Assembly (NCBI GenBank): GCA_044358835.1
Contig: JBIKNF010000002.1
Location: 9,909 to 73,908, forward strand
DNA length: 64,000 nucleotides
Source of the DNA: Vampirovibrionales bacterium
GTDB lineage: Bacteria; Cyanobacteriota; Vampirovibrionia; Vampirovibrionales; JAJTHC01
Direction: 5' to 3'
The notes under the pieces were generated by a model. That model saw nothing but the letters and a program-made list of their open reading frames with translations. It did no database searches and was not told the DNA's origin. This document shows positions 34,956 through 44,634 of this stretch, piece after piece. A program made the position numbers and the translations under genes. The stretch's first letter is position 1; the number at the start of each line of letters is the position of its first letter.

Positions 34956-37790
34956 ATGGGTTCGGTTAATGCCAGTTCATCAAACAATCCAAACATGCCA
35001 CTGAACCCTTATAATTTACAAGCGGTTGAAAATATCGCGGGAACAGCCCTTGACAAAGTCAATGAAGAGGGCCAATCACTTTCTCAAAAAATGCTTGACA
35101 TGGCTTTAACCATGCAGTTTATGGACGCTGAATCTTCTGAGCGCTTGACTTTGCCTGAAAAAGGGGGTGCGGTGGGATTGGGTCTGGTGTCGTTTTTGGC
35201 GTTTACGCAAATTGCGCATCGTTTAGCGGGATTGGATGCCAACCTTGGCACCCTAACCCCAGAAAGTAAAGCCACCGCCAAAAATAGCCTCATGGGTAAG
35301 CTTGCCCGTGCCGTCGACAAATTTGGCCCCCAAGAAGGACGTTTTAAAAATCTGCCTACGTGGTTAAGGGTCTATATCGGGGATCTACCCACGAATGAAT
35401 ACATGGATCACTGGCTTTTAAATCACGAACATGCGGTGAATGCGACGGCCAGTAAGTTGAGCAAGCATTTAACCACGCCCCCACAACCCAAGTGGCTCAG
35501 TCGATTTTCTCCGCCAAAGCCAGAAAACCCAAATGCCTTTACAAAAGGTTCAGAACTGCCTGAAGGGAGTTTGTTGCAACGCTATATTGCCCAATATACC
35601 GATGTGCACAAGAGGCTAGAAAAGGCGCATGCAGGAAGAAATTATTTCACCCCTTTTCAGGATATTCTTTCTGGCGAACAACAAAAAAAGCTGACGCTTT
35701 CATTGCTCCACCCTTTAATGGAAGCGGACCCTCGTGGTAATTTAGTGCTAGAAGAAAGCACTACGTTTTACCCACACTTTAAAGCATTGTATGAAGAAGC
35801 CTTAGCACACGCTAAACAAAGCCAAAGCCATGACGCCTTGTGGCCATTCCGTCGGCCGAATTCTGGGGTGGGTCACCCCTTGCTGGGGTGGTTTAGACAA
35901 AAAGGGCCAGACGCTTTAACATTTGAGCAATTCATCAAAGAATGTCCGTCTCATTCGTTGAACCATGAAATGAAGCAGATTCTAGAGCTCGTGCCTCATG
36001 ACTCTAAACACTTCCAAGCCCTACAAACAGATGTGCTGAACGACGTACACAAGATCAATCCCTTAAGCGTTAAACGTGCGGTTTTAGAAGCGGTGCATCA
36101 CAATTTGTACCGCAGAAGCCAGATGATTGACCTAGCGCAAGCTCGATTTGTGCCAAAACACGCGCAACAAACCGACGTAAAGGTGGATGTAAAAACACTT
36201 CGAGACTCTATTTTAAGCGTGCAAAGAATTGGCGACAAGGACCACTGGATCCCCTTTAGTCGCTTTGTTTCCAAGCTCTTCACCTCTGATGCCAAACTTA
36301 AGACATTAAGAACCCAAGCAATTAAGGAAATAGAATCCAACCGATCCCATTGGGAACAGTTGCTAGGTCCAGAGGTCGTGCAAAAACACCTTGACGCATT
36401 AGATCTCGCAAATCCCATGAGCAAAGGCGAATTCTTTAAGCGCAATTTAGAATTTGGTAAATATGCCCGTGCACACCTAGAAAGCTTCCAAAAAATACAC
36501 GAAGTCTTGCCTCGTTCCATTAAGCGTTTGGTTCAAAACATTGCGGAACACGAGCAGTTCATCCACAATCAGAAAGAACTTTCTGAAGCATGGGGCGTAA
36601 GTGGTTTGGGTCGCAGTGTGGCATCACTGTGGCGAGGGATGATTGACTTAGTCAAGGTGGGTTTACATGAAACCCCTGAAGAAGTCTTGAAAAACAAGGC
36701 CTTGGCCATGGCGGATTTAAAAAGAGGGGCCACACACCCACTTTCAAACATGTTACAAAGCATTAAAGACCCTCGGTACATGGCCTTCTTTCTATTCGCA
36801 ATGACAGCCTTTAGTGCGGGGTGGGCTGCATTTATGGCAGCGGGTAAGCCTACAAAAGCCAAAGCTTTGCAAGGGCCACAGGCCAAGGCCCCAGTGCCAG
36901 CAACGGCTCAAGCCAAGGCTTCGCAGGCAAGCACCCCTGCGGTGCGTTCAGGCACGGCTGTCTTTCAAGCGCAACCCACGGCTCAACCCACGACGCAAGC
37001 GTCAAAAACGCCTGTGGCAGTCGCTAAAAGTTCACCAGCAAAGGAAGATCGCTTTGTGCTAGGTGAACAGCTCAAAGCAGGCGTACGTTCCTTTTTAGGC
37101 ATGGCGTTGCCCCTGGTAGGTGGCCACCAGCTGATTATGTTCCTTAACCGTGGTAACCCCTTGGGGAAACTAATGGGGGGGCATTACTTAACAAGTTTTA
37201 AGTTCCCTTTTGGTGTAGCTGGTTTACATTGGTTAACAGCAACTGGAGCCGTCATTACTATTGGAAACATGCTGTTTCTTTCAAACCTTTTAGGCCAAGG
37301 GGCTAAAAAAGTGCAAGACAAAAGCGTCGGCAAACCCACGTACTTGGTGGAATATGAAGAACGTGAAAAGGCGGTTTCTGCGCTTGAAGCGATTAAGAAT
37401 CGTCAGTTTAGCGACTTAAAAAAGGAAGACATTGCCCTTATTGCCAAATATCCTGAAGCATCCAAAAAGGCCAAGATTCAGTTGACGCCTGCTCAAATTG
37501 AAGAAGCCTTTCGTTTAGCCGGCCATAAACCTGTTAGAGAAATCGACCCCAAGGAAGCCGCCTTGTTGTACGCCTTGGCACAAAGTGCCAAGAACCCTAC
37601 AGCGACTGAATCTACAGGAATTGGTAAAACATTAACCGCTCAAGAAGCCGCTTTGTTGTATACTTTGGCTCAGCAAGGAAGCGCTTCTACGGGGCCAGCC
37701 GTAGGGGGAACAAAACCTTTGACGGCGCAAGAAGCGGCCTTATTGTACACCTTAGCCCAACCCCCACAAAGTACCCCCAAAAGTATTTAG
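34956..37790 (+). CDS. Large hypothetical membrane-associated protein with C-terminal tandem peptide repeats (effector/Inc-like candidate)
   Basis: 944 aa with hydrophobic segments GGAVGLGLVSFLAFTQIA, YMAFFLFAMTAFSAGWAAFMAAG and GVAGLHWLTATGAVITIGNMLFLSNLLG. The C-terminus carries three copies of (L)TAQEAALLY(A/T)LAQ. Confidence 0.6.
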   Translation: MGSVNASSSNNPNMPLNPYNLQAVENIAGTALDKVNEEGQSLSQKMLDMALTMQFMDAESSERLTLPEKGGAVGLGLVSFLAFTQIAHRLAGLDANLGTLTPESKATAKNSLMGKLARAVDKFGPQEGRFKNLPTWLRVYIGDLPTNEYMDHWLLNHEHAVNATASKLSKHLTTPPQPKWLSRFSPPKPENPNAFTKGSELPEGSLLQRYIAQYTDVHKRLEKAHAGRNYFTPFQDILSGEQQKKLTLSLLHPLMEADPRGNLVLEESTTFYPHFKALYEEALAHAKQSQSHDALWPFRRPNSGVGHPLLGWFRQKGPDALTFEQFIKECPSHSLNHEMKQILELVPHDSKHFQALQTDVLNDVHKINPLSVKRAVLEAVHHNLYRRSQMIDLAQARFVPKHAQQTDVKVDVKTLRDSILSVQRIGDKDHWIPFSRFVSKLFTSDAKLKTLRTQAIKEIESNRSHWEQLLGPEVVQKHLDALDLANPMSKGEFFKRNLEFGKYARAHLESFQKIHEVLPRSIKRLVQNIAEHEQFIHNQKELSEAWGVSGLGRSVASLWRGMIDLVKVGLHETPEEVLKNKALAMADLKRGATHPLSNMLQSIKDPRYMAFFLFAMTAFSAGWAAFMAAGKPTKAKALQGPQAKAPVPATAQAKASQASTPAVRSGTAVFQAQPTAQPTTQASKTPVAVAKSSPAKEDRFVLGEQLKAGVRSFLGMALPLVGGHQLIMFLNRGNPLGKLMGGHYLTSFKFPFGVAGLHWLTATGAVITIGNMLFLSNLLGQGAKKVQDKSVGKPTYLVEYEEREKAVSALEAIKNRQFSDLKKEDIALIAKYPEASKKAKIQLTPAQIEEAFRLAGHKPVREIDPKEAALLYALAQSAKNPTATESTGIGKTLTAQEAALLYTLAQQGSASTGPAVGGTKPLTAQEAALLYTLAQPPQSTPKSI

Positions 37791-37980
37791 TTCAAATCTT
37801 TCGTTTTGCATCAAAATCTTTATTTTCTTTCGTTTATTTATTTTATTTAGTTAATCTTTATTCTTTCGTTTTAAATCTTTCGTTTTTGCCTTAAAATCTT
37901 TAGTTTATTTATTTTCTTTCGTTTCTTTCGTTTCTTTCGTTTCTTTAGTTTTGGTTCTAAATGTTTCGTTTTTAGTTGGA
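37791..37980. repeat. AT-rich degenerate tandem repeat tract. It includes 4x TTTCTTTCG 9-mers (37913-37948) and 4-5 copies of (A)AATCTTTCGTTTT.
   Basis: Read directly. The tract lies between the stop of 34956..37790 and the GTG start of 38007..38336. Confidence 0.8.
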
Positions 37981-38006
37981 AGTTTTTTATTTAAGGAAAG
38001 TCTACC

Positions 38007-38336
38007 GTGCCTGATTCACCCAAAAACCCAAACCCTTCTTCACCTGAACAAACGGCGGACTTGTCGGATCTCCCTTCCCCGCCGGATTTAAGCAAGCGAA
38101 ATGACGCTTCTTCAGAACAAGAAGGAGAAAAAGGTTCACCCAAACCCATTTACCCTAGCACTTACCCACTTTCGCCACAAGCACTCGCTGAACGTTTGCA
38201 GTCGTGGGTGAAAAATCCTCAAGATCCCTTTGACAGGTTAAATCGCTTGCCACAGGTGGATTTGCCTCCTGAAAACATCGCTTACCAAAGTCCCTTTTTA
38301 TTTTACAAAGGCGCCACCCTGAAACCCCCCATGTAA
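38007..38336 (+). CDS. Hypothetical small Pro/Ser-rich protein (GTG start)
   Basis: 109 aa with a biased composition. It is kept because of an upstream RBS-like aaggaaag and because it sits in an ORFan cluster. Confidence 0.35.
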   Translation: MPDSPKNPNPSSPEQTADLSDLPSPPDLSKRNDASSEQEGEKGSPKPIYPSTYPLSPQALAERLQSWVKNPQDPFDRLNRLPQVDLPPENIAYQSPFLFYKGATLKPPM

Positions 38337-38345
38337 TAGGTATAG

Positions 38346-38370
38346 TATAGATAAAATACTATACGGACTG
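38346..38370 (+). repeat. Copy of the recurring intergenic motif (TATAGATAAAA...CGGACTG, with a 7 nt insertion) inside a 9 bp palindrome gtatagtat/atactatac
   Basis: Compared by eye with the sites at 39885, 42766 and 51582. Confidence 0.5.
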
Positions 38371-38377
38371 CCGTTTT

Positions 38378-39802
38378 TTACGGTCGAGGTTTTGCATTGT
38401 TTGCGTGGGGGCGAAAATCTGCCCCGTTGTAGTCAAAGCGTTGTTTCGTAAGGGGTTTTAGGCGAATGTCGAAAGCCAACATAAATGAATCGCCTAGGAA
38501 TCGGGCAAAACCGTTAAATGGCGAGGGCACCAGCGAAGTGACAAATTGCATCAGGGTTGCAAAACCTCCATTGGCCAGCGTGGCGTACGTTTCATTAAAC
38601 AGGTTATGCAAAAACCAAATAAACCCTTTGGCGGGATTTAAACACTGGGCAATGTCAAACATCGAACGTAAGGCCATCCCATCAACGTCATGCCATACTT
38701 TTAACAGCATGCCTAAATCTTTATGGGCATATAAATCAAAGAAGGTTTTATACAGCGCCAAGCGAACGGCCGTTTGCTTTTCATGACGAGAAAGCAGGTG
38801 TAAGTATTCTTTAAAGGTGGCTTCGTTTTGCTGGAGCAAAGGCAAGGGCGTTGGCAAGTGCTGATTCTTTTCAGTAATGCCTTCGTTTAGTCGCTTAATA
38901 TGCCGTATAAAATCCTGCCAATGGCTCAATTTAAGATCTTCCATATGGCCTTTGGGATCGGTTCTAAAGTAAAGATCTTTGGCTTTTGAAAGGGCTTTGG
39001 CTTTGGCATCCAACACGGCGCCAAAAACGGGGATATTACTGATCCAACTATCGACTTGATCTAACGTTCCGCGTTTGCCGTCGACTTTTGGGACGAAGGC
39101 CATAAACAGGGGGGTACTGCTTACCCAACGAACAGGGGCAAAATGAAGTAGACTGTTAATGCCACGGGCTAAAAAGGGCATGTCTTTTTTTTGTTGAAAG
39201 TGAAAGGCGAGCATGGCCTTGGCTTGTTGATCCGGTGTAAGATGCCGAGCGTTTTGAACGCGGTGTTGATAGGTGCTTAGCGCCTTTTGCATTAAGGCCT
39301 GTTGTTTTTTACCCTGTTCGTAGGGTTTAACCGCGTCAAACAAGCCCAACCAATGCCCGCCCAAGTGATTGACTTGCTTTAAGAAGTATTCATACTTACT
39401 GCGGTACTTTTCTTTTCCCTTAATGACGGTGGTGCCTAGTTCAGCGTAGCCTTGTTCATCTAGCAGTAGGCCTGAAAAATCGGCGTTGTTTAAATTCATC
39501 AGTAGTGTTGAGGTCACTGAAGTTGTGGGGGGGTGGTGGGTGAGGTCTTTCATCAATGCTTTGGCCAGTAAGCCACCGCCATAGCTAATGCCCAGGCCAC
39601 CTACTACTAAAGGCCATGACATCACATTATAAACGCTGGCGCCAGACGCCGTAGCCAGCCCAAAAGGCACCCCAAACTTTAGTAAAGTCGCCGTAAGAAG
39701 CTTGCTTTGCTGAGCCATGTTTTTGGGATTAAAGCCACTGCGTTGCAACGCCAAACGCGGCGAAGTGTTGAAAGAAGGTGGCGTTGAAGAAATTTTATAC
39801 AT
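38378..39802 (-). CDS. Hypothetical membrane protein (ORFan)
   Basis: 474 aa with an N-terminal Gly-rich hydrophobic segment LATASGASVYNVMSWPLVVGGLGISYGGGLLAKA and further hydrophobic stretches. Confidence 0.55.
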   Translation of the reverse strand: MYKISSTPPSFNTSPRLALQRSGFNPKNMAQQSKLLTATLLKFGVPFGLATASGASVYNVMSWPLVVGGLGISYGGGLLAKALMKDLTHHPPTTSVTSTLLMNLNNADFSGLLLDEQGYAELGTTVIKGKEKYRSKYEYFLKQVNHLGGHWLGLFDAVKPYEQGKKQQALMQKALSTYQHRVQNARHLTPDQQAKAMLAFHFQQKKDMPFLARGINSLLHFAPVRWVSSTPLFMAFVPKVDGKRGTLDQVDSWISNIPVFGAVLDAKAKALSKAKDLYFRTDPKGHMEDLKLSHWQDFIRHIKRLNEGITEKNQHLPTPLPLLQQNEATFKEYLHLLSRHEKQTAVRLALYKTFFDLYAHKDLGMLLKVWHDVDGMALRSMFDIAQCLNPAKGFIWFLHNLFNETYATLANGGFATLMQFVTSLVPSPFNGFARFLGDSFMLAFDIRLKPLTKQRFDYNGADFRPHANNAKPRP

Positions 39803-39884
39803 AAAACGTGTTTATTGTGCCTGAAAGTAACGGTCAATACAAGGGGACTCATGGGCATAAAGGCATGAACATAAATGGGTGTGC

Positions 39885-39901
39885 TATAGATAAAACGGTC
39901 T
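39885..39901 (+). repeat. Recurring intergenic motif TATAGATAAAACGGTCT, 83 bp upstream of the start codon of 38378..39802
   Basis: Read directly. Confidence 0.6.
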
Positions 39902-40052
39902 GTAATCTGCAAAAAAGAAGTTTAAACCTATTGTAATCAAATGTAACAAAACAAGCACTTACTAAAGCCTCGTGTTTTTATTAGTTTGAGCCTTACATAC
40001 TAAAATTGCTTAGAGACAAACCATATATTCGACATAGAGAGGAACAACTTAC

Positions 40053-41090
40053 ATGAATAACACCACGAGAGTGTTGCCGTTTGATTTTGAACGCTATTTT
40101 TATGGACAAACAAACACTTCAGATTCCAATTACAACGCCACTTCAATTCCCCAAACACCTTACTGGGGTAAAACATTGAATACTTCTAAAAAAAATACGT
40201 CTGTCCCTTCTTTCGAACCATCCAATGAAACGAAAAAATGGGGGATGATGCTTGCCCTTTTTGGTAAAAATAAGACTTTAAAAACACCGAGTCTTCCAAA
40301 GGCTTCAGCAGCAGTGGTTAAACCCGCTGTTTCTAAAAAGGATGAAGACCTCTTAAGCTTACCTCTTTTGGGAGGGGACTTTATTTCAACGCCTGTGGTT
40401 ATGAAACCTAAGAATCCTGCTAAGCCTAAACTTCCTAAAAACGATGTTACCCTTCCTATTTTTGGGGGAGGAGACCTAAGTACACCGAAACCAACCGGCC
40501 CATTCTTGAGCCCTTCATTAAATGACCTTTTTCAGACGCTTACCTTTAAAGGCACCGTAGCAACGGGGCAACGTTCAGGGTACTGGGGTGACCCTCATGT
40601 GCTTGATGCCGAAAGTGCTAATAATCATTTTATCGTCACTGGTCCGGGTACTTATAACTTGTTAAAAGACAAAAACATTGCCCTTTCCGCTGAACATAAA
40701 AAATATGATCGTTGGGCTATTGAAGTGACCAATCAAATTAATCTCGCCTTAGGTACTTCTAACGTGGTATTTAATGCTTACGGAACACCGACCCTTAACG
40801 GTCAAGCCTTGGAACAAGGTAAGCTGATGACCTTACCTGATGGGTCTAGTGTCAATTGGAACGGAACGACCTTAAGTGTGAAGAATGCCAATTTTGGCGA
40901 ATATAATTTAGATGTGACTCGTCAACAAGCTGGCGGTGGAGTCAATTACCTAGACACCTGGATTAACAGCACGTACAAAGGCGTCTTTTCAGACGGCATT
41001 CTACCCACCGGTATTTTAGGTGAAGGCTTTGACATGGACAACCTCGTTCGTACCAAGTTAAACTTTGGCCTTGAAACGTACAAAGTCTAA
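40053..41090 (+). CDS. Hypothetical protein with a GDPHV motif, resembling the metal-ion-inducible autocleavage (MIIA/DUF1521) domain of T3SS effectors such as NopE1
   Basis: 345 aa. The N-terminal half is S/T/K/P-rich. The C-terminal domain contains SGYWGDPHVLDAESANNHF. Confidence 0.5.
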   Translation: MNNTTRVLPFDFERYFYGQTNTSDSNYNATSIPQTPYWGKTLNTSKKNTSVPSFEPSNETKKWGMMLALFGKNKTLKTPSLPKASAAVVKPAVSKKDEDLLSLPLLGGDFISTPVVMKPKNPAKPKLPKNDVTLPIFGGGDLSTPKPTGPFLSPSLNDLFQTLTFKGTVATGQRSGYWGDPHVLDAESANNHFIVTGPGTYNLLKDKNIALSAEHKKYDRWAIEVTNQINLALGTSNVVFNAYGTPTLNGQALEQGKLMTLPDGSSVNWNGTTLSVKNANFGEYNLDVTRQQAGGGVNYLDTWINSTYKGVFSDGILPTGILGEGFDMDNLVRTKLNFGLETYKV

Positions 41091-41131: not shown

Positions 41132-42331
41132 GTGGGCATGGAAACATTCTATTCCCACTACTTTGATTATGCGGCCACCACCCCTGTGCATCCTGAGGTG
41201 TTAGAAGCCATGCTTCCTTTTTTAGGGGGGCATTTTGCCAATGCCCATAGTCCGCATCACGCAGGGCAAGCGGCTAAAAAAGCGGTAGAAACGGCTCGCT
41301 CGCAAATCGCCACTTACTTGAATGTGAATCCTTCAGAATTGATTTTTACCAGTGGCGGGACTGAAAGTAACAATCTAGGAATTATGGGGGTTATGCGTGC
41401 CTTGAAAGTCCAAGGCGAACGTCGAGGCCTCATCGTTTCTAGTACCGAACATAGTGCCGTGCTGGAAGCGGCTCGCTACATGGCTCGTTATGAAGGCGTT
41501 CCTTTGTTGGAAGTGAACCCCAATAGCCAAGGCATTATTGTATGTGACGCCTTAGAAGAGGCCTTACAATCGCAACCCACCGCGTTGGTGTCCATTATGC
41601 ATGCCAATAACGAAACAGGGGCGTTGAATGATATTCAAGCCCTTTCTGCACTAACGCATCGTTATCAGGCGTTTTTTCATACGGATGCTGTTCAAAGTCT
41701 AGGCAAAGTTTCCCTTGATTTAACCCAGAACTTGCCTGCGGTGGATTACCTAACCGCCACCGCACACAAGATTTACGGCCCTAAGGGGGTTGGGCTTTTC
41801 TTTAGTCGTAAGATCGCCTTCAAGCCTCACCCCGTGATTATGGGCGGGGGGCAAGAAAACGGCTTTCGAGGGGGGACGCTCAATACACCCGCTATTGTTG
41901 GTTTTGGCAAGGCGGTAGAACTTTTAAAAACGCATGAAGTAGAACGTCAAGCTCACTTAAAAGACTTAACCGCTTTTTTAATTCAGGGGATTCAAAATCT
42001 CAATACCCATGGGCTAAGCAAAGGGAAACTTCATTTAAACACGCCTTTAGAAGAAGACAAGCGAGTCCCAGGGATTGTGAACGTTTCGGTTGAAGGGGTG
42101 AGCGGTGATAAAATGGTGATGCAACTGGACATGCAAAACATCGCTGTTTCAAGTGGTTCAGCCTGCCATGCGGATCAACTTTCGCCCAGCCATGTGGTTT
42201 TGGCACAAGGTGGGAATGAAGCCTTGGCAAAATCTACCTTACGCATGAGTTTAGGGCAGTATAGTACTATAGATGGGGTAAACGATTTGCTGAATATTTT
42301 AGCCGTTCGTTTGGCACGTTGGCATGGGTAG
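41132..42331 (+). CDS. Cysteine desulfurase (IscS/NifS class V aminotransferase)
   Basis: FDYAATTPV, SGGTESNN, PLP-Lys region ATAHKIYGPKGVG, and the catalytic Cys loop SSGSACHA. Confidence 0.85.
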   Translation: MGMETFYSHYFDYAATTPVHPEVLEAMLPFLGGHFANAHSPHHAGQAAKKAVETARSQIATYLNVNPSELIFTSGGTESNNLGIMGVMRALKVQGERRGLIVSSTEHSAVLEAARYMARYEGVPLLEVNPNSQGIIVCDALEEALQSQPTALVSIMHANNETGALNDIQALSALTHRYQAFFHTDAVQSLGKVSLDLTQNLPAVDYLTATAHKIYGPKGVGLFFSRKIAFKPHPVIMGGGQENGFRGGTLNTPAIVGFGKAVELLKTHEVERQAHLKDLTAFLIQGIQNLNTHGLSKGKLHLNTPLEEDKRVPGIVNVSVEGVSGDKMVMQLDMQNIAVSSGSACHADQLSPSHVVLAQGGNEALAKSTLRMSLGQYSTIDGVNDLLNILAVRLARWHG

Positions 42332-42420: not shown

Positions 42421-42750
42421 ATGGGTTTAGCGACTGCGTCTTTTATGAATCAATTTTCCATGATGCAAGCCATGAATGCACAGTACAGCTTAATGACGGG
42501 TGCTCAAAGTTTGATGGCGCTCAGCAATCAAGCCAGCCAAGTGGCCATGGCAAACCCCACCGCGATTGAAAATGGATACGGCCCAGGTGCTTATATGACG
42601 AATCTCTTTCAAAGCGAACGGGCTTTACTGTTAAACCAATCTCGTCAACAAACGAACTTAAAAATGTATGAAGCCATGCAGGAATCTTCCAAAAAACTGG
42701 CCGACAAAAAAGCCAGTGAAGTGGGCCGATATTTAGATGTCACGGGCTAG
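42421..42750 (+). CDS. Hypothetical small Q/M/N/A-rich protein
   Basis: 109 aa, with the RBS aaggaggaa 8 nt upstream of the ATG. No motif recognised. Confidence 0.45.
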   Translation: MGLATASFMNQFSMMQAMNAQYSLMTGAQSLMALSNQASQVAMANPTAIENGYGPGAYMTNLFQSERALLLNQSRQQTNLKMYEAMQESSKKLADKKASEVGRYLDVTG

Positions 42751-42975: not shown

Positions 42976-44634
42976 TTAAAAATCAAGTTCACGCATAAGT
43001 GATTCTATTTCAGCGGGAGCCAGTTCCTGAGTTTGATCATTTAAATACAAGGCTTCTTGAAATAAGGGTTTGGCTAAATGCACTTGGTCTAGCTTTATCA
43101 ATGTGCGTCCCAAATTAAAGCGAGCCATTGCATAAGTGGCATCTAAGCGTTGGGCTTCTTCAAAATACTTACGTGCTTCCTTAAAGTCTTGCCAAACATC
43201 CAAGTACAGTACCCCTAAGTTATTTAAGGCAATGGGGTTTTGTTTGTTCAGAAAAATAGCCTTTTTATAGGATTTTTCCGCTTCTTGGTGGCGCCCTGCT
43301 TGCCAGTACAGGTAGCCTAAAAATCCGTAGACTTCTGCATTTTCTGGTTGAAAACGTAGGATTTTTTGATACACATCTACCGCTTCATCATAGCGTTCGG
43401 CTTTGCAATGGGCTTCTGCCAAACTAAACAAATCGTTGATGTTCGCAGGTTCAAGTTCTTGAGCCAATTGCAAGCAGGCAAAGGCATGATCAGTATCCCC
43501 CTTATGCGCTTCGTAAATGCGCGCGAGTTGACGAGACACTTGTGCTGTCCACAAGGGGTCAATCCCAAAGGTGATGGCGGTTTTATACGCTTCAATACAT
43601 CCGTCAATGTCATCCATTGATTTTAAGACTTCACCCATGTGGTAGTAACTTTTGGCGTGATGAGGCATCGTGTTTAAGGCGACTCTTAAATGATATAACG
43701 CCTTGGTGAAGGCCCCATGATTTTGAAGGATTTTTGCCAATTCAAAGTGTAAGTCTCCTTCATTGGGGTGTCGTGCAATGCGGGCTTCCATGACACGAAT
43801 GGCTTCGTCAATTTCGTTGGCATCTAGCAAAGCGCTTACTTCATCTTGCTCGCTTGAAGGAGACTGTTTAGGAAACGAGTGAGTTTCAAACGCATCAGTC
43901 AACGCTTCAAAAAAGGGAGCATGTTCCTTGTGTTCAAATCCAGAAGCCAATCTCTCGTCAAAGTCTTTTGTATACGTCTTGGAATGAACCCCTGTGTGAT
44001 GCCCGTTCACCGATTCTTTGAATAAAGTCGTCTTAATACGTTGAGAAGTCCCCAAGCGGTTATACCCCAGTAGGTTGAGCAGGGGTTGAATGCTTTCTGC
44101 AAGTAAGAGCAAAAAGCTGTGTTGTAAGACGCGAAGGCTTAAGAGATTTTCTTGTAAGGCCCATGTCGTCACGAGCTGACGTGTATGACTATTAAACACA
44201 GGGGCTAACGCTAACGCGTGCTGAGCAGAGGTTTGAGCAGGAGCCTTTAAGCCACATTCCCACTGAAAAAAGGCCAAAAAGTGCCACGCTTCAGCACATT
44301 GTGGATCTTCTTCCACCAATCGCTGTAAGGTGCCTAAGCCTTCCATCAACACCATGGTTCCAGTCAGCCATGTGGCCCACGTATAACGCGCTTGGTGTAA
44401 GGTGCTTTCTAATAGTCGTTGGCCTTGATTGTTGTAAAACCCCAGCAACGCATCTAAGTCTTGCACAGACGCTTGTTTAAGCAGTCTGCCCCACACTTGA
44501 TTCGCCTGCGCTTCAGAAAGTATTGTAAAGACAGATGAAAACCCATGAACATTGAGTGAAGTCGAGACCCGAGAGGGAGAAGACGATTTCAACGCGTTGC
44601 GTTGGGCATGAAAAGAATGCTGAGGAAGATTCAT
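42976..44634 (-). CDS. TPR-repeat protein
   Basis: 552 aa with multiple TPR-like units (AEVYGFLGYLYWQAGRHQEAEKSYKKAIFLNKQN, ALNNLGVLYLD...). Confidence 0.75.
   Translation of the reverse strand: MNLPQHSFHAQRNALKSSSPSRVSTSLNVHGFSSVFTILSEAQANQVWGRLLKQASVQDLDALLGFYNNQGQRLLESTLHQARYTWATWLTGTMVLMEGLGTLQRLVEEDPQCAEAWHFLAFFQWECGLKAPAQTSAQHALALAPVFNSHTRQLVTTWALQENLLSLRVLQHSFLLLLAESIQPLLNLLGYNRLGTSQRIKTTLFKESVNGHHTGVHSKTYTKDFDERLASGFEHKEHAPFFEALTDAFETHSFPKQSPSSEQDEVSALLDANEIDEAIRVMEARIARHPNEGDLHFELAKILQNHGAFTKALYHLRVALNTMPHHAKSYYHMGEVLKSMDDIDGCIEAYKTAITFGIDPLWTAQVSRQLARIYEAHKGDTDHAFACLQLAQELEPANINDLFSLAEAHCKAERYDEAVDVYQKILRFQPENAEVYGFLGYLYWQAGRHQEAEKSYKKAIFLNKQNPIALNNLGVLYLDVWQDFKEARKYFEEAQRLDATYAMARFNLGRTLIKLDQVHLAKPLFQEALYLNDQTQELAPAEIESLMRELDF

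Follow-up and report, generated by a model that had tools for sequence, protein, structure and literature searches.

A conserved GDPH motif in a predicted, cysteine-free von Willebrand factor type D-like domain of Vampirovibrionales bacteria

Nearly all studies of self-cleavage between GD and PH within the tetrapeptide GDPH concern animal mucins, FCGBP and RGMs; a separate line of work deals with the MIIA domains of rhizobia and Vibrio. In the animal proteins (FCGBP, MUC2, MUC5AC, MUC4 and RGM), the motif is located at the start of a von Willebrand factor type D (VWD) domain, Pfam family PF00094. The subject of this work is a GDPH-containing protein of 345 residues encoded in a 64-kb stretch of DNA (64,000 nucleotides, hereafter the window) from a Vampirovibrionales bacterium. 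Structure prediction and profile comparisons indicate that its C-terminal domain is a divergent, cysteine-free bacterial homologue of the VWD domain, and the gene is an uncharacterised member of a bacterial branch that is partly labelled VWD in public annotation.

All FCGBP VWD domains bearing GDPH are autocatalytically cleaved in the endoplasmic reticulum, unless the Asp residue is replaced by Ala; the cut leaves an Asp anhydride, most of which is hydrolysed (PMC8267560). The presence of Ca2+ sites in animal VWD domains has also been mentioned (PMC11796319, PMC11933400). MIIA domains, such as those of NopE1, NopE2 and VIC_001052, are cleaved after the Asp of GDPH upon addition of Ca2+. They contain 42 acidic and 21 basic residues in 171 positions, are intrinsically disordered until Ca2+ binds, and are encoded in or near type 3 secretion system (T3SS) clusters (PMC6506597). 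[quoted passage not shown] The FrpC SPM differs in fold and lacks the GDPH context, and no FrpC chain was retrieved in PDB sequence or profile searches at E<=1-10; it is an analogue of the protein described here, not a relative.

The assignment of the C-terminal domain to the VWD type rests on structure prediction and on transitive profile evidence, because direct searches with the protein were negative: neither Pfam nor NCBIfam gave any match, even at E<=1, and a direct sequence search of the PDB returned nothing relevant. The AlphaFold2 model obtained from a 43-sequence alignment predicts a confident beta-sandwich (pLDDT, the predicted local distance difference test, of 94.8) with the VWD fold. 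It superseded a mediocre first model (pLDDT 60), for which 14 close sequences had been aligned. The VWD proteins listed in identifying the domain were MUC5B, VWF (D assemblies), FCGBP, MUC2 and MUC5AC, and also vitellogenin, Cypridina luciferase, an insect VWD-type pigment protein and the C-terminal fragment of RGMB.

Three alignments were used for the comparison: A1 contains close homologues, A2 is a narrow profile of the Vampirovibrionales subfamily, and A4 is a broad profile of 43 sequences with the window protein as its first row. A4 matches mouse FCGBP: the five VWD domains together give E=3.6e-26, and the best independent E-value for a single domain is 2e-4 over about 105 columns. In this hidden Markov model (HMM) alignment the family segment wGDPHvadaDgekydvqG is placed on GDPHYvTFDGrrFDFmG of FCGBP, and the GDPH is in register with that of the five FCGBP VWD domains. 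In addition, the Pfam VWD family is matched by 44 of 106 relatives at E<=0.01, with a best E of 2e-8.

The motif occupies residues 22-25 of the 188-residue domain, which is the canonical self-cleavage position of a domain family whose autoproteolysis between GD and PH is well documented. G, D, P and H are invariant across the 43 diverse members of A4, and D, P and H are shared without exception by 21 homologues in A1. The 268 proteins collected contain 281 domain instances, 252 of which cover the motif column. GDPH is exact in 236 of these 252 (94%), and three more carry SDPH or DDPH; about eight of the 16 inexact instances are devoid of the motif altogether (for instance, GNGK or GAGN), the rest being one residue off. 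Because the motif is exact in so many instances, GDPH is under strong selection, and its conservation rules out a chance match. The original prediction, which was made from the DNA letters and had first drawn attention to the string SGYWGDPHVLDAESANNHF, was right as to the presence of this motif.

The best explanation of these data, to which we assign a probability of roughly 0.7, is a VWD-type protein that undergoes autocatalytic Asp-Pro cleavage. Since GDPH is invariant, and given the biochemistry of FCGBP and MIIA, the bond between D180 and P181 is probably cut. After folding of the beta-sandwich, the side chain of D180 would attack the D180-P181 peptide bond. The products would be an N-fragment of residues 1-180 with a transient Asp anhydride at its end and a C-fragment starting with PHVLDAES. 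The computed values for these fragments are 19.6 kDa and pI 9.7 (basic) for the former, and 18.0 kDa and pI 5.3 (acidic) for the latter. The disulfide that tethers the cleaved fragments of the animal proteins is absent, because none of the 345 residues is a cysteine. Without this tether, the two fragments would either be held together via the beta-strand RSGYW that precedes the cut or separate. By analogy, folding or cleavage may depend on Ca2+, and the anhydride or the freed tail may have a role of its own. Acidic positions compatible with a Ca2+ site are D185, E187 (D in at least 90% of relatives), D206, E283, D314, D327 and D329.

The likeness to the animal GDPH-bearing VWD domains extends beyond the motif and its position, since the pattern x-x-D-G...F-x-V-x-G...Y-x-L-L follows GDPH in both, and scission of the Asp-Pro bond would be expected to proceed via an Asp anhydride, as in FCGBP (PMC8267560). 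However, the window protein is bacterial, has no signal peptide and is too divergent for PF00094. It also lacks the cysteines, disulfides and C8/TIL/E modules of its animal counterparts, and its fusion partner is a presumably disordered basic tail instead of mucin or adhesive modules.

The closest relatives are bacterial. A protein-level search covering 5.8 billion proteins returned 23 homologues with E values from 1e-230 to 1e-42, one of them named Vampirovibrionales. The domain profile, searched against 1.84 billion cluster representatives, retrieved 279 proteins at E<=1e-3 (132 at E<=1e-10), so that clustering at 50% identity leaves the family with at least 279 clusters. When GTDB genomes were scanned, 25 loci emerged, at 2-4 copies per genome; almost all of them bear the label Vampirovibrionales, Vampirovibrio or Melainabacteria. 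In view of these 23 homologues, 279 clusters and 25 loci, the protein is not the ORFan that it had been taken for. A profile search of a second database returned relatives with precomputed PF00094 hits, some named "VWD domain-containing protein" (metagenome-assembled genomes, MAGs, of Pseudomonadota in NCBI and JGI) and others "von Willebrand factor type D domain", together with hypothetical proteins from Paracoccus, Thiofilum flexile, Thiolinea and Melainabacteria.

These bacterial proteins, from Pseudomonadota, Paracoccus, Thiofilum and Melainabacteria, are clearly homologous to the window protein (the 279 clusters at E<=1e-3) and share its layout, in which a low-complexity N-terminus of 100-200 residues is followed by one WGDPH domain of about 180 residues. 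They are mostly cysteine-poor (105 of 197 full-length relatives are cysteine-free) and, like the window protein, lack a Sec signal. The Vampirovibrionales subfamily has the signatures GDPHVxDA(D/E) and GILGEGFD and the N-terminal motif as its own features. It is not detected by Pfam, whereas a precomputed PF00094 hit is available for many of the proteobacterial members. Within A1, the N-terminal half varies in sequence and length among orthologues except for three elements: the start MNNxTxxxPFNFxRYxYGQ, a weakly conserved short hydrophobic patch, and one to three LPIxGGxDxSTP motifs. The last 190 residues or so are highly conserved, Y-W-G-D-P-H-V-x-D-A and P-T-G-I-L-G-E-G-F-D being invariant or nearly so.

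A Sec-like N-terminus was detected in only 2 of 197 full-length members, and the 195 without it include those from cultured Paracoccus and Thiofilum; the criterion was a Kyte-Doolittle mean of at least 2.2 over a 10-mer in the first 40 residues, a crude hydropathy heuristic and not a signal-peptide predictor. The partner domains found in relatives are Big_9, cadherin-like, PA-IL lectin, PKD, dockerin, EF-hand and DUF4214. Such domains are typically extracellular, which favours export by a non-Sec route, and the GDPH protein itself may be exported in the same way, or else may be cytoplasmic.

Several observations weigh against a self-cleaving VWD-type protein. The window protein has no match to Pfam VWD (PF00094), even at E<=1, and the narrow profile A2 matches no VWD chain in the PDB. 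The disulfides and the flanking C8/TIL modules on which animal VWD domains depend are absent, although the cysteine framework and C8/TIL define the metazoan D assembly and not the VWD fold itself. The protein is devoid of a signal peptide, and scans of the window and of the paralogue loci detected no secretion genes linked to it. Moreover, for the bacterial family as a whole, we infer cleavage by analogy. Even where cleavage takes place, the new Asp of FCGBP is buried and simply hydrolysed (PMC8267560, PMC11796319); for this reason, cleavage may merely stabilise the fold, without release or ligation of the fragments.

One alternative is that GDPH is kept for structure or metal binding and is never cut, the protein remaining intact and serving, with its flexible tail, in binding or adhesion. 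Fold and homology speak equally for this possibility and for a self-cleaving protein. Many VWD domains, for instance those of VWF, function without cleavage. In a protein without a disulfide, cleavage could be destabilising, and 16 of the 252 instances covering the motif do not have an exact GDPH. However, every GDPH examined in a VWD context is cleaved (all the sites of FCGBP, MUC2 and MUC5AC; PMC8267560), and the exact conservation of four residues in 94% of instances, including the labile Asp-Pro, is hard to explain by packing alone. An uncleaved module is therefore considered unlikely. Still less probable is that the protein is a cytoplasmic partner of the cysteine desulfurase encoded downstream, with a role in, for instance, sulfur or Fe-S trafficking or regulation; only a very slight chance is given to it. 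All orthologous loci have an Aminotran_5 gene 40-55 nucleotides downstream but differ in their upstream genes, no terminator-like site was found in the 41-nucleotide gap of the window, and the rarity of Sec-like N-termini (2 of 197) would fit a cytoplasmic protein. On the other hand, paralogues and distant relatives do not adjoin cysteine desulfurases, the partner domains of relatives are typically extracellular, and the protein has no cysteine to accept a persulfide. The genomes with orthologues are also fairly close to each other (their desulfurases are 81-93% identical), and the synteny may simply be inherited. No VWD-fold protein is known to participate in sulfur metabolism.

The original prediction had proposed a self-processing secreted effector of the MIIA/DUF1521 type. 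Such a protein, similar to NopE1 or VIC_001052, would be secreted by a T3SS, and its disordered acidic domain would fold and be cleaved between GD and PH in response to host Ca2+. The window protein (GDPHV, residues 179-183) and the MIIA domains of NopE1, NopE2 and VIC_001052 have in common GDPH(V/F)D followed by a D-G...F-D-F-like segment, and both are bacterial and devoid of a signal peptide. DUF1521 is matched by 10 of 106 distant relatives at E<=0.01 (best E 8e-7), only at HMM positions of about 36-100. In one of them, P0085 (814 residues, L030:2805-5249), which also contains DUF4214, DUF1521 (26.2 bits for a cut-off of 23.6, HMM 36-100) and VWD match the same stretch, residues 419-494, with GDPH on GDPH. 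When compared by hhalign with five MIIA domains, A4 gave E=3.2e-4 and a probability of 38.6%; the aligned part, with GDPH at its centre, comprises 61 of about 170 columns, a weak and local similarity. A route for such an effector could be envisaged, since Vampirovibrionales have a flagellar type III export gate and one FHIPEP gene adjoins a paralogue. The sequences used as MIIA queries (VIC_001052, NopE1 and NopE2) were taken from the machine-read text of the PMC6506597 supplement after removal of obvious duplicated letters. As a control, these MIIA domains match Pfam DUF1521 (PF07481) with E values down to 5e-88, and none of them matches VWD. In contrast, the window protein has no DUF1521 match in Pfam at E<=1, which was the test suggested by the original prediction, and the alignment of A2 with MIIA was out of register (probability 1.7%); these two results rule out membership of DUF1521. 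The domain is near neutral (18 D/E and 14 K/R in 188 residues) and confidently folded in silico, while MIIA is very acidic and disordered in the absence of Ca2+ (PMC6506597). The part following the cut is about 165 residues long here and about 127 in MIIA. As for the presumed T3SS link, no T3SS genes are present among the 20 window neighbours scanned, nor in the orthologue loci, and the gene is located among housekeeping genes only. It belongs to the syntenic core, each genome having 2-4 paralogues, and relatives occur in Paracoccus and Thiofilum. An MIIA-type effector is thus regarded as highly improbable. Nevertheless, intermediates like P0085 suggest, at the level of sequence profiles, that DUF1521/MIIA is a diverged VWD-type domain, and the GDPH-bearing superfamily may include DUF1521 as a distant offshoot. 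A connection between DUF1521/MIIA and VWD was not found in the papers searched; the von Willebrand domains in the Vampirovibrio genome paper are VWA, not VWD.

On its own, the finding is an improvement of annotation and not a surprise. The bacterial family is notable in that it combines a predicted VWD fold and a GDPH that is exact in 94% of instances with the lack of disulfides, almost never has a Sec signal, and includes members matching both VWD and DUF1521. If self-cleavage of the VWD-type protein were true, the domain would constitute a minimal VWD module for autoprocessing, free of cysteines and about 165 residues long, that could be produced in Escherichia coli for the study of the mechanism. 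It might also become an anhydride-generating ligation tool like NeissLock, and MIIA would then look like a derivative of the VWD domain. For Vampirovibrionales, the finding points to 2-4 paralogous candidates for non-classical export in each genome. In a broader and quite speculative scenario, to which we give little credence, the cysteine-free bacterial WGDPH domains, those of the Vampirovibrionales subfamily among them, and DUF1521/MIIA would form one VWD-derived superfamily characterised by non-Sec export and Ca2+-triggered self-cleavage. The Asp anhydride made after export would then tether the basic tail to hydroxyl or amine groups on prey or on the cell surface, or cleavage would release the tail as an effector. 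A parallel for anhydride tethering is provided by the heavy chains of inter-alpha-inhibitor, which are esterified to glycans, and the Vampirovibrionales lineage is probably predatory.

The features of the gene and its two closest neighbours are collected in Table 1.

Table 1. Positions in the window of the GDPH gene, its parts and the adjacent genes
Feature	Positions	Strand	Basis
474-residue protein, divergently transcribed, no Pfam or NCBIfam match	38378..39802	-	
Shine-Dalgarno-like site GAGAGGA, 9 nucleotides before ATG	40037..40043	+	sequence read directly
Coding sequence of the GDPH protein, 345 residues plus stop	40053..41090	+	open reading frame list
N-terminal region, residues 1-157	40053..40523	+	composition, hydropathy
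N-terminal motif MNNTTRVLPFDFERYFYGQ, orthologue consensus MNNxTxxxPFNFxRYxYGQ	40053..40109	+	alignment A1
Repeat copy 1, SLPLLGGDFISTP, pattern LP[LI]xGGxD[FL]xSTP	40356..40394	+	sequence
Repeat copy 2, TLPIFGGGDLSTP, orthologue consensus TLPIxGGxDxSTP	40449..40487	+	alignment A1
C-terminal predicted VWD-fold beta-sandwich domain, residues 158-345, cysteine-free	40524..41087	+	
GDPH motif, residues 179-182	40587..40598	+	within SGYWGDPHVLDAES / SGYWGDPHVLDAESANNHF
Predicted scissile bond D180-P181	codons 40590-40592 / 40593-40595	+	
Invariant loop motif PTGILGEGFDMD near the domain C-terminus	41004..41039	+	A1, A2, A4
NifS/IscS-like cysteine desulfurase (Aminotran_5), 41 nucleotides downstream	41132..42331	+	NCBIfam, Pfam

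The open reading frame (ORF) exists as it had been described, with a Shine-Dalgarno-like site and an in-frame stop upstream. This stop is a TAG at positions 40035-40037, the six-frame segment being open from 40038; because it precedes the ATG, the N-terminus of the protein cannot be longer. The opposite strand of the gene holds no competing ORF of at least 60 residues in the ORF list. Public collections contain a copy of the protein that is 100% identical, and homologues with identities of 50-98% agree with it in length and in their N-terminus. Apart from the VWD-type domain, no further domains were detected in the protein with Pfam, and no second copy of the domain is present in the window.

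The first 157 residues are of low complexity, as originally noted, with a pI of 9.8 and 18 K, 19 P, 16 T, 15 S and 12 N, and are presumably disordered. This region contains neither a Sec-type hydrophobic core nor a transmembrane segment, its highest Kyte-Doolittle mean over 15 residues being 1.33. MNNTTRVLPFDFERYFYGQ, at the very start, is a candidate targeting or recognition signal. With respect to the two repeats, copy 2 is better conserved than copy 1, and orthologues have one to three similar copies. In the C-terminal domain, neither A1 nor A2 shows any variation at P318-D327 and D329, and G163, G166 and D170 (domain numbering) are conserved in A4. The loop PTGILGEGFDMD may have its counterpart in the GLCGNxNG/Ca2+-site loop of animal VWD domains.

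N-termini across the family (P0001-P0268) are polar, rich in N, Q, S, T, G, P and Y, and of low complexity. Many members have one short amphipathic helix-like patch, such as LLAMIMQLLQQLMG, or DLMSYVEMLLVQDYD in P0078, P0103, P0106, P0116 and P0153. Paralogues can be clustered. For instance, two copies (L012 and L023) are about 11 kb apart in the complete genome CP050876.1 of Vampirovibrio sp. OL03a (at about 1.152-1.176 Mb), and Thiofilum flexile has three copies (P0245, P0247 and P0248) on one 105-kb contig. The MAG JBEISK01, labelled "Gammaproteobacteria bacterium", has three copies of the Vampirovibrionales subfamily (L005, L015 and L019); its gene order is that of Vampirovibrionales loci and its desulfurase is 86% identical. 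This bin is probably mislabelled or mixed.

In each of the orthologous loci (L001-L009), the desulfurase gene directly follows the GDPH gene and has the same orientation. It is a possible operon partner, or the arrangement is merely inherited synteny. The window region is of housekeeping character and holds ProRS, CysRS, AspRS, GlyRS-alpha, TrmD, PGK, MDH/LDH and LptF/G, together with an aldehyde dehydrogenase, an SNF2 helicase, and Sel1 and TPR proteins. Desulfurase synteny and this neighbourhood rule out a horizontally acquired island or effector locus. The GC content is 42.3% in the gene, 45.0% in positions 34956-41090 and 47.3% on average in the window. The AT-richer segment initially reported is thus real, but the dip is modest and the synteny is not island-like.

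The same segment had been called a run of ORFans, a description that does not hold for the 474-residue neighbour, since homologues 75-78% identical to it occur in the same divergent position at L003 and L009 and near a paralogue at L020. This protein has hydrophobic segments near residues 35-85. Another ORF (944 residues, positions 34956-37790, plus strand) has no Pfam or NCBIfam match; besides hydrophobic segments and an A/P/Q/T-rich linker, it has three copies of (L)TAQEAALLY(T/A)LAQ at the C-terminus. The flanks of the GDPH-gene loci, including the 93%-identical L006, hold no homologue of it, and for this reason it may be a lineage-specific insertion.

Around the 19 paralogue loci, the 115 ORFs scanned are mostly of housekeeping type, with TPR genes in six cases and one flagellar FHIPEP gene, and show no enrichment in secretion genes; two distant relatives sit among unrelated genes. 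The TPR genes probably reflect the mere abundance of TPR proteins in these genomes. In the window, a TPR protein of 552 residues (42976-44634, minus strand) is encoded 2 kb downstream of the GDPH gene and has a 55% identical homologue about 4 kb from the paralogue in L021. Between the desulfurase and this gene lies an ORF for a Q/M/N/A-rich protein of 109 residues (42421-42750, plus strand), conserved in L006 (94%) and L009 (74%), whose only matches are weak and below threshold, to YfbU and to the EspB_PPE domain of an ESX secretion-associated protein. Finally, a gene of the RuBisCO_large family (L001:11041-12246, minus strand, 401 residues) is present 2 kb downstream of the GDPH orthologue on a contig of Vampirovibrionales type. 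Because the lineage is reportedly non-photosynthetic, the product is presumably a RuBisCO-like protein.

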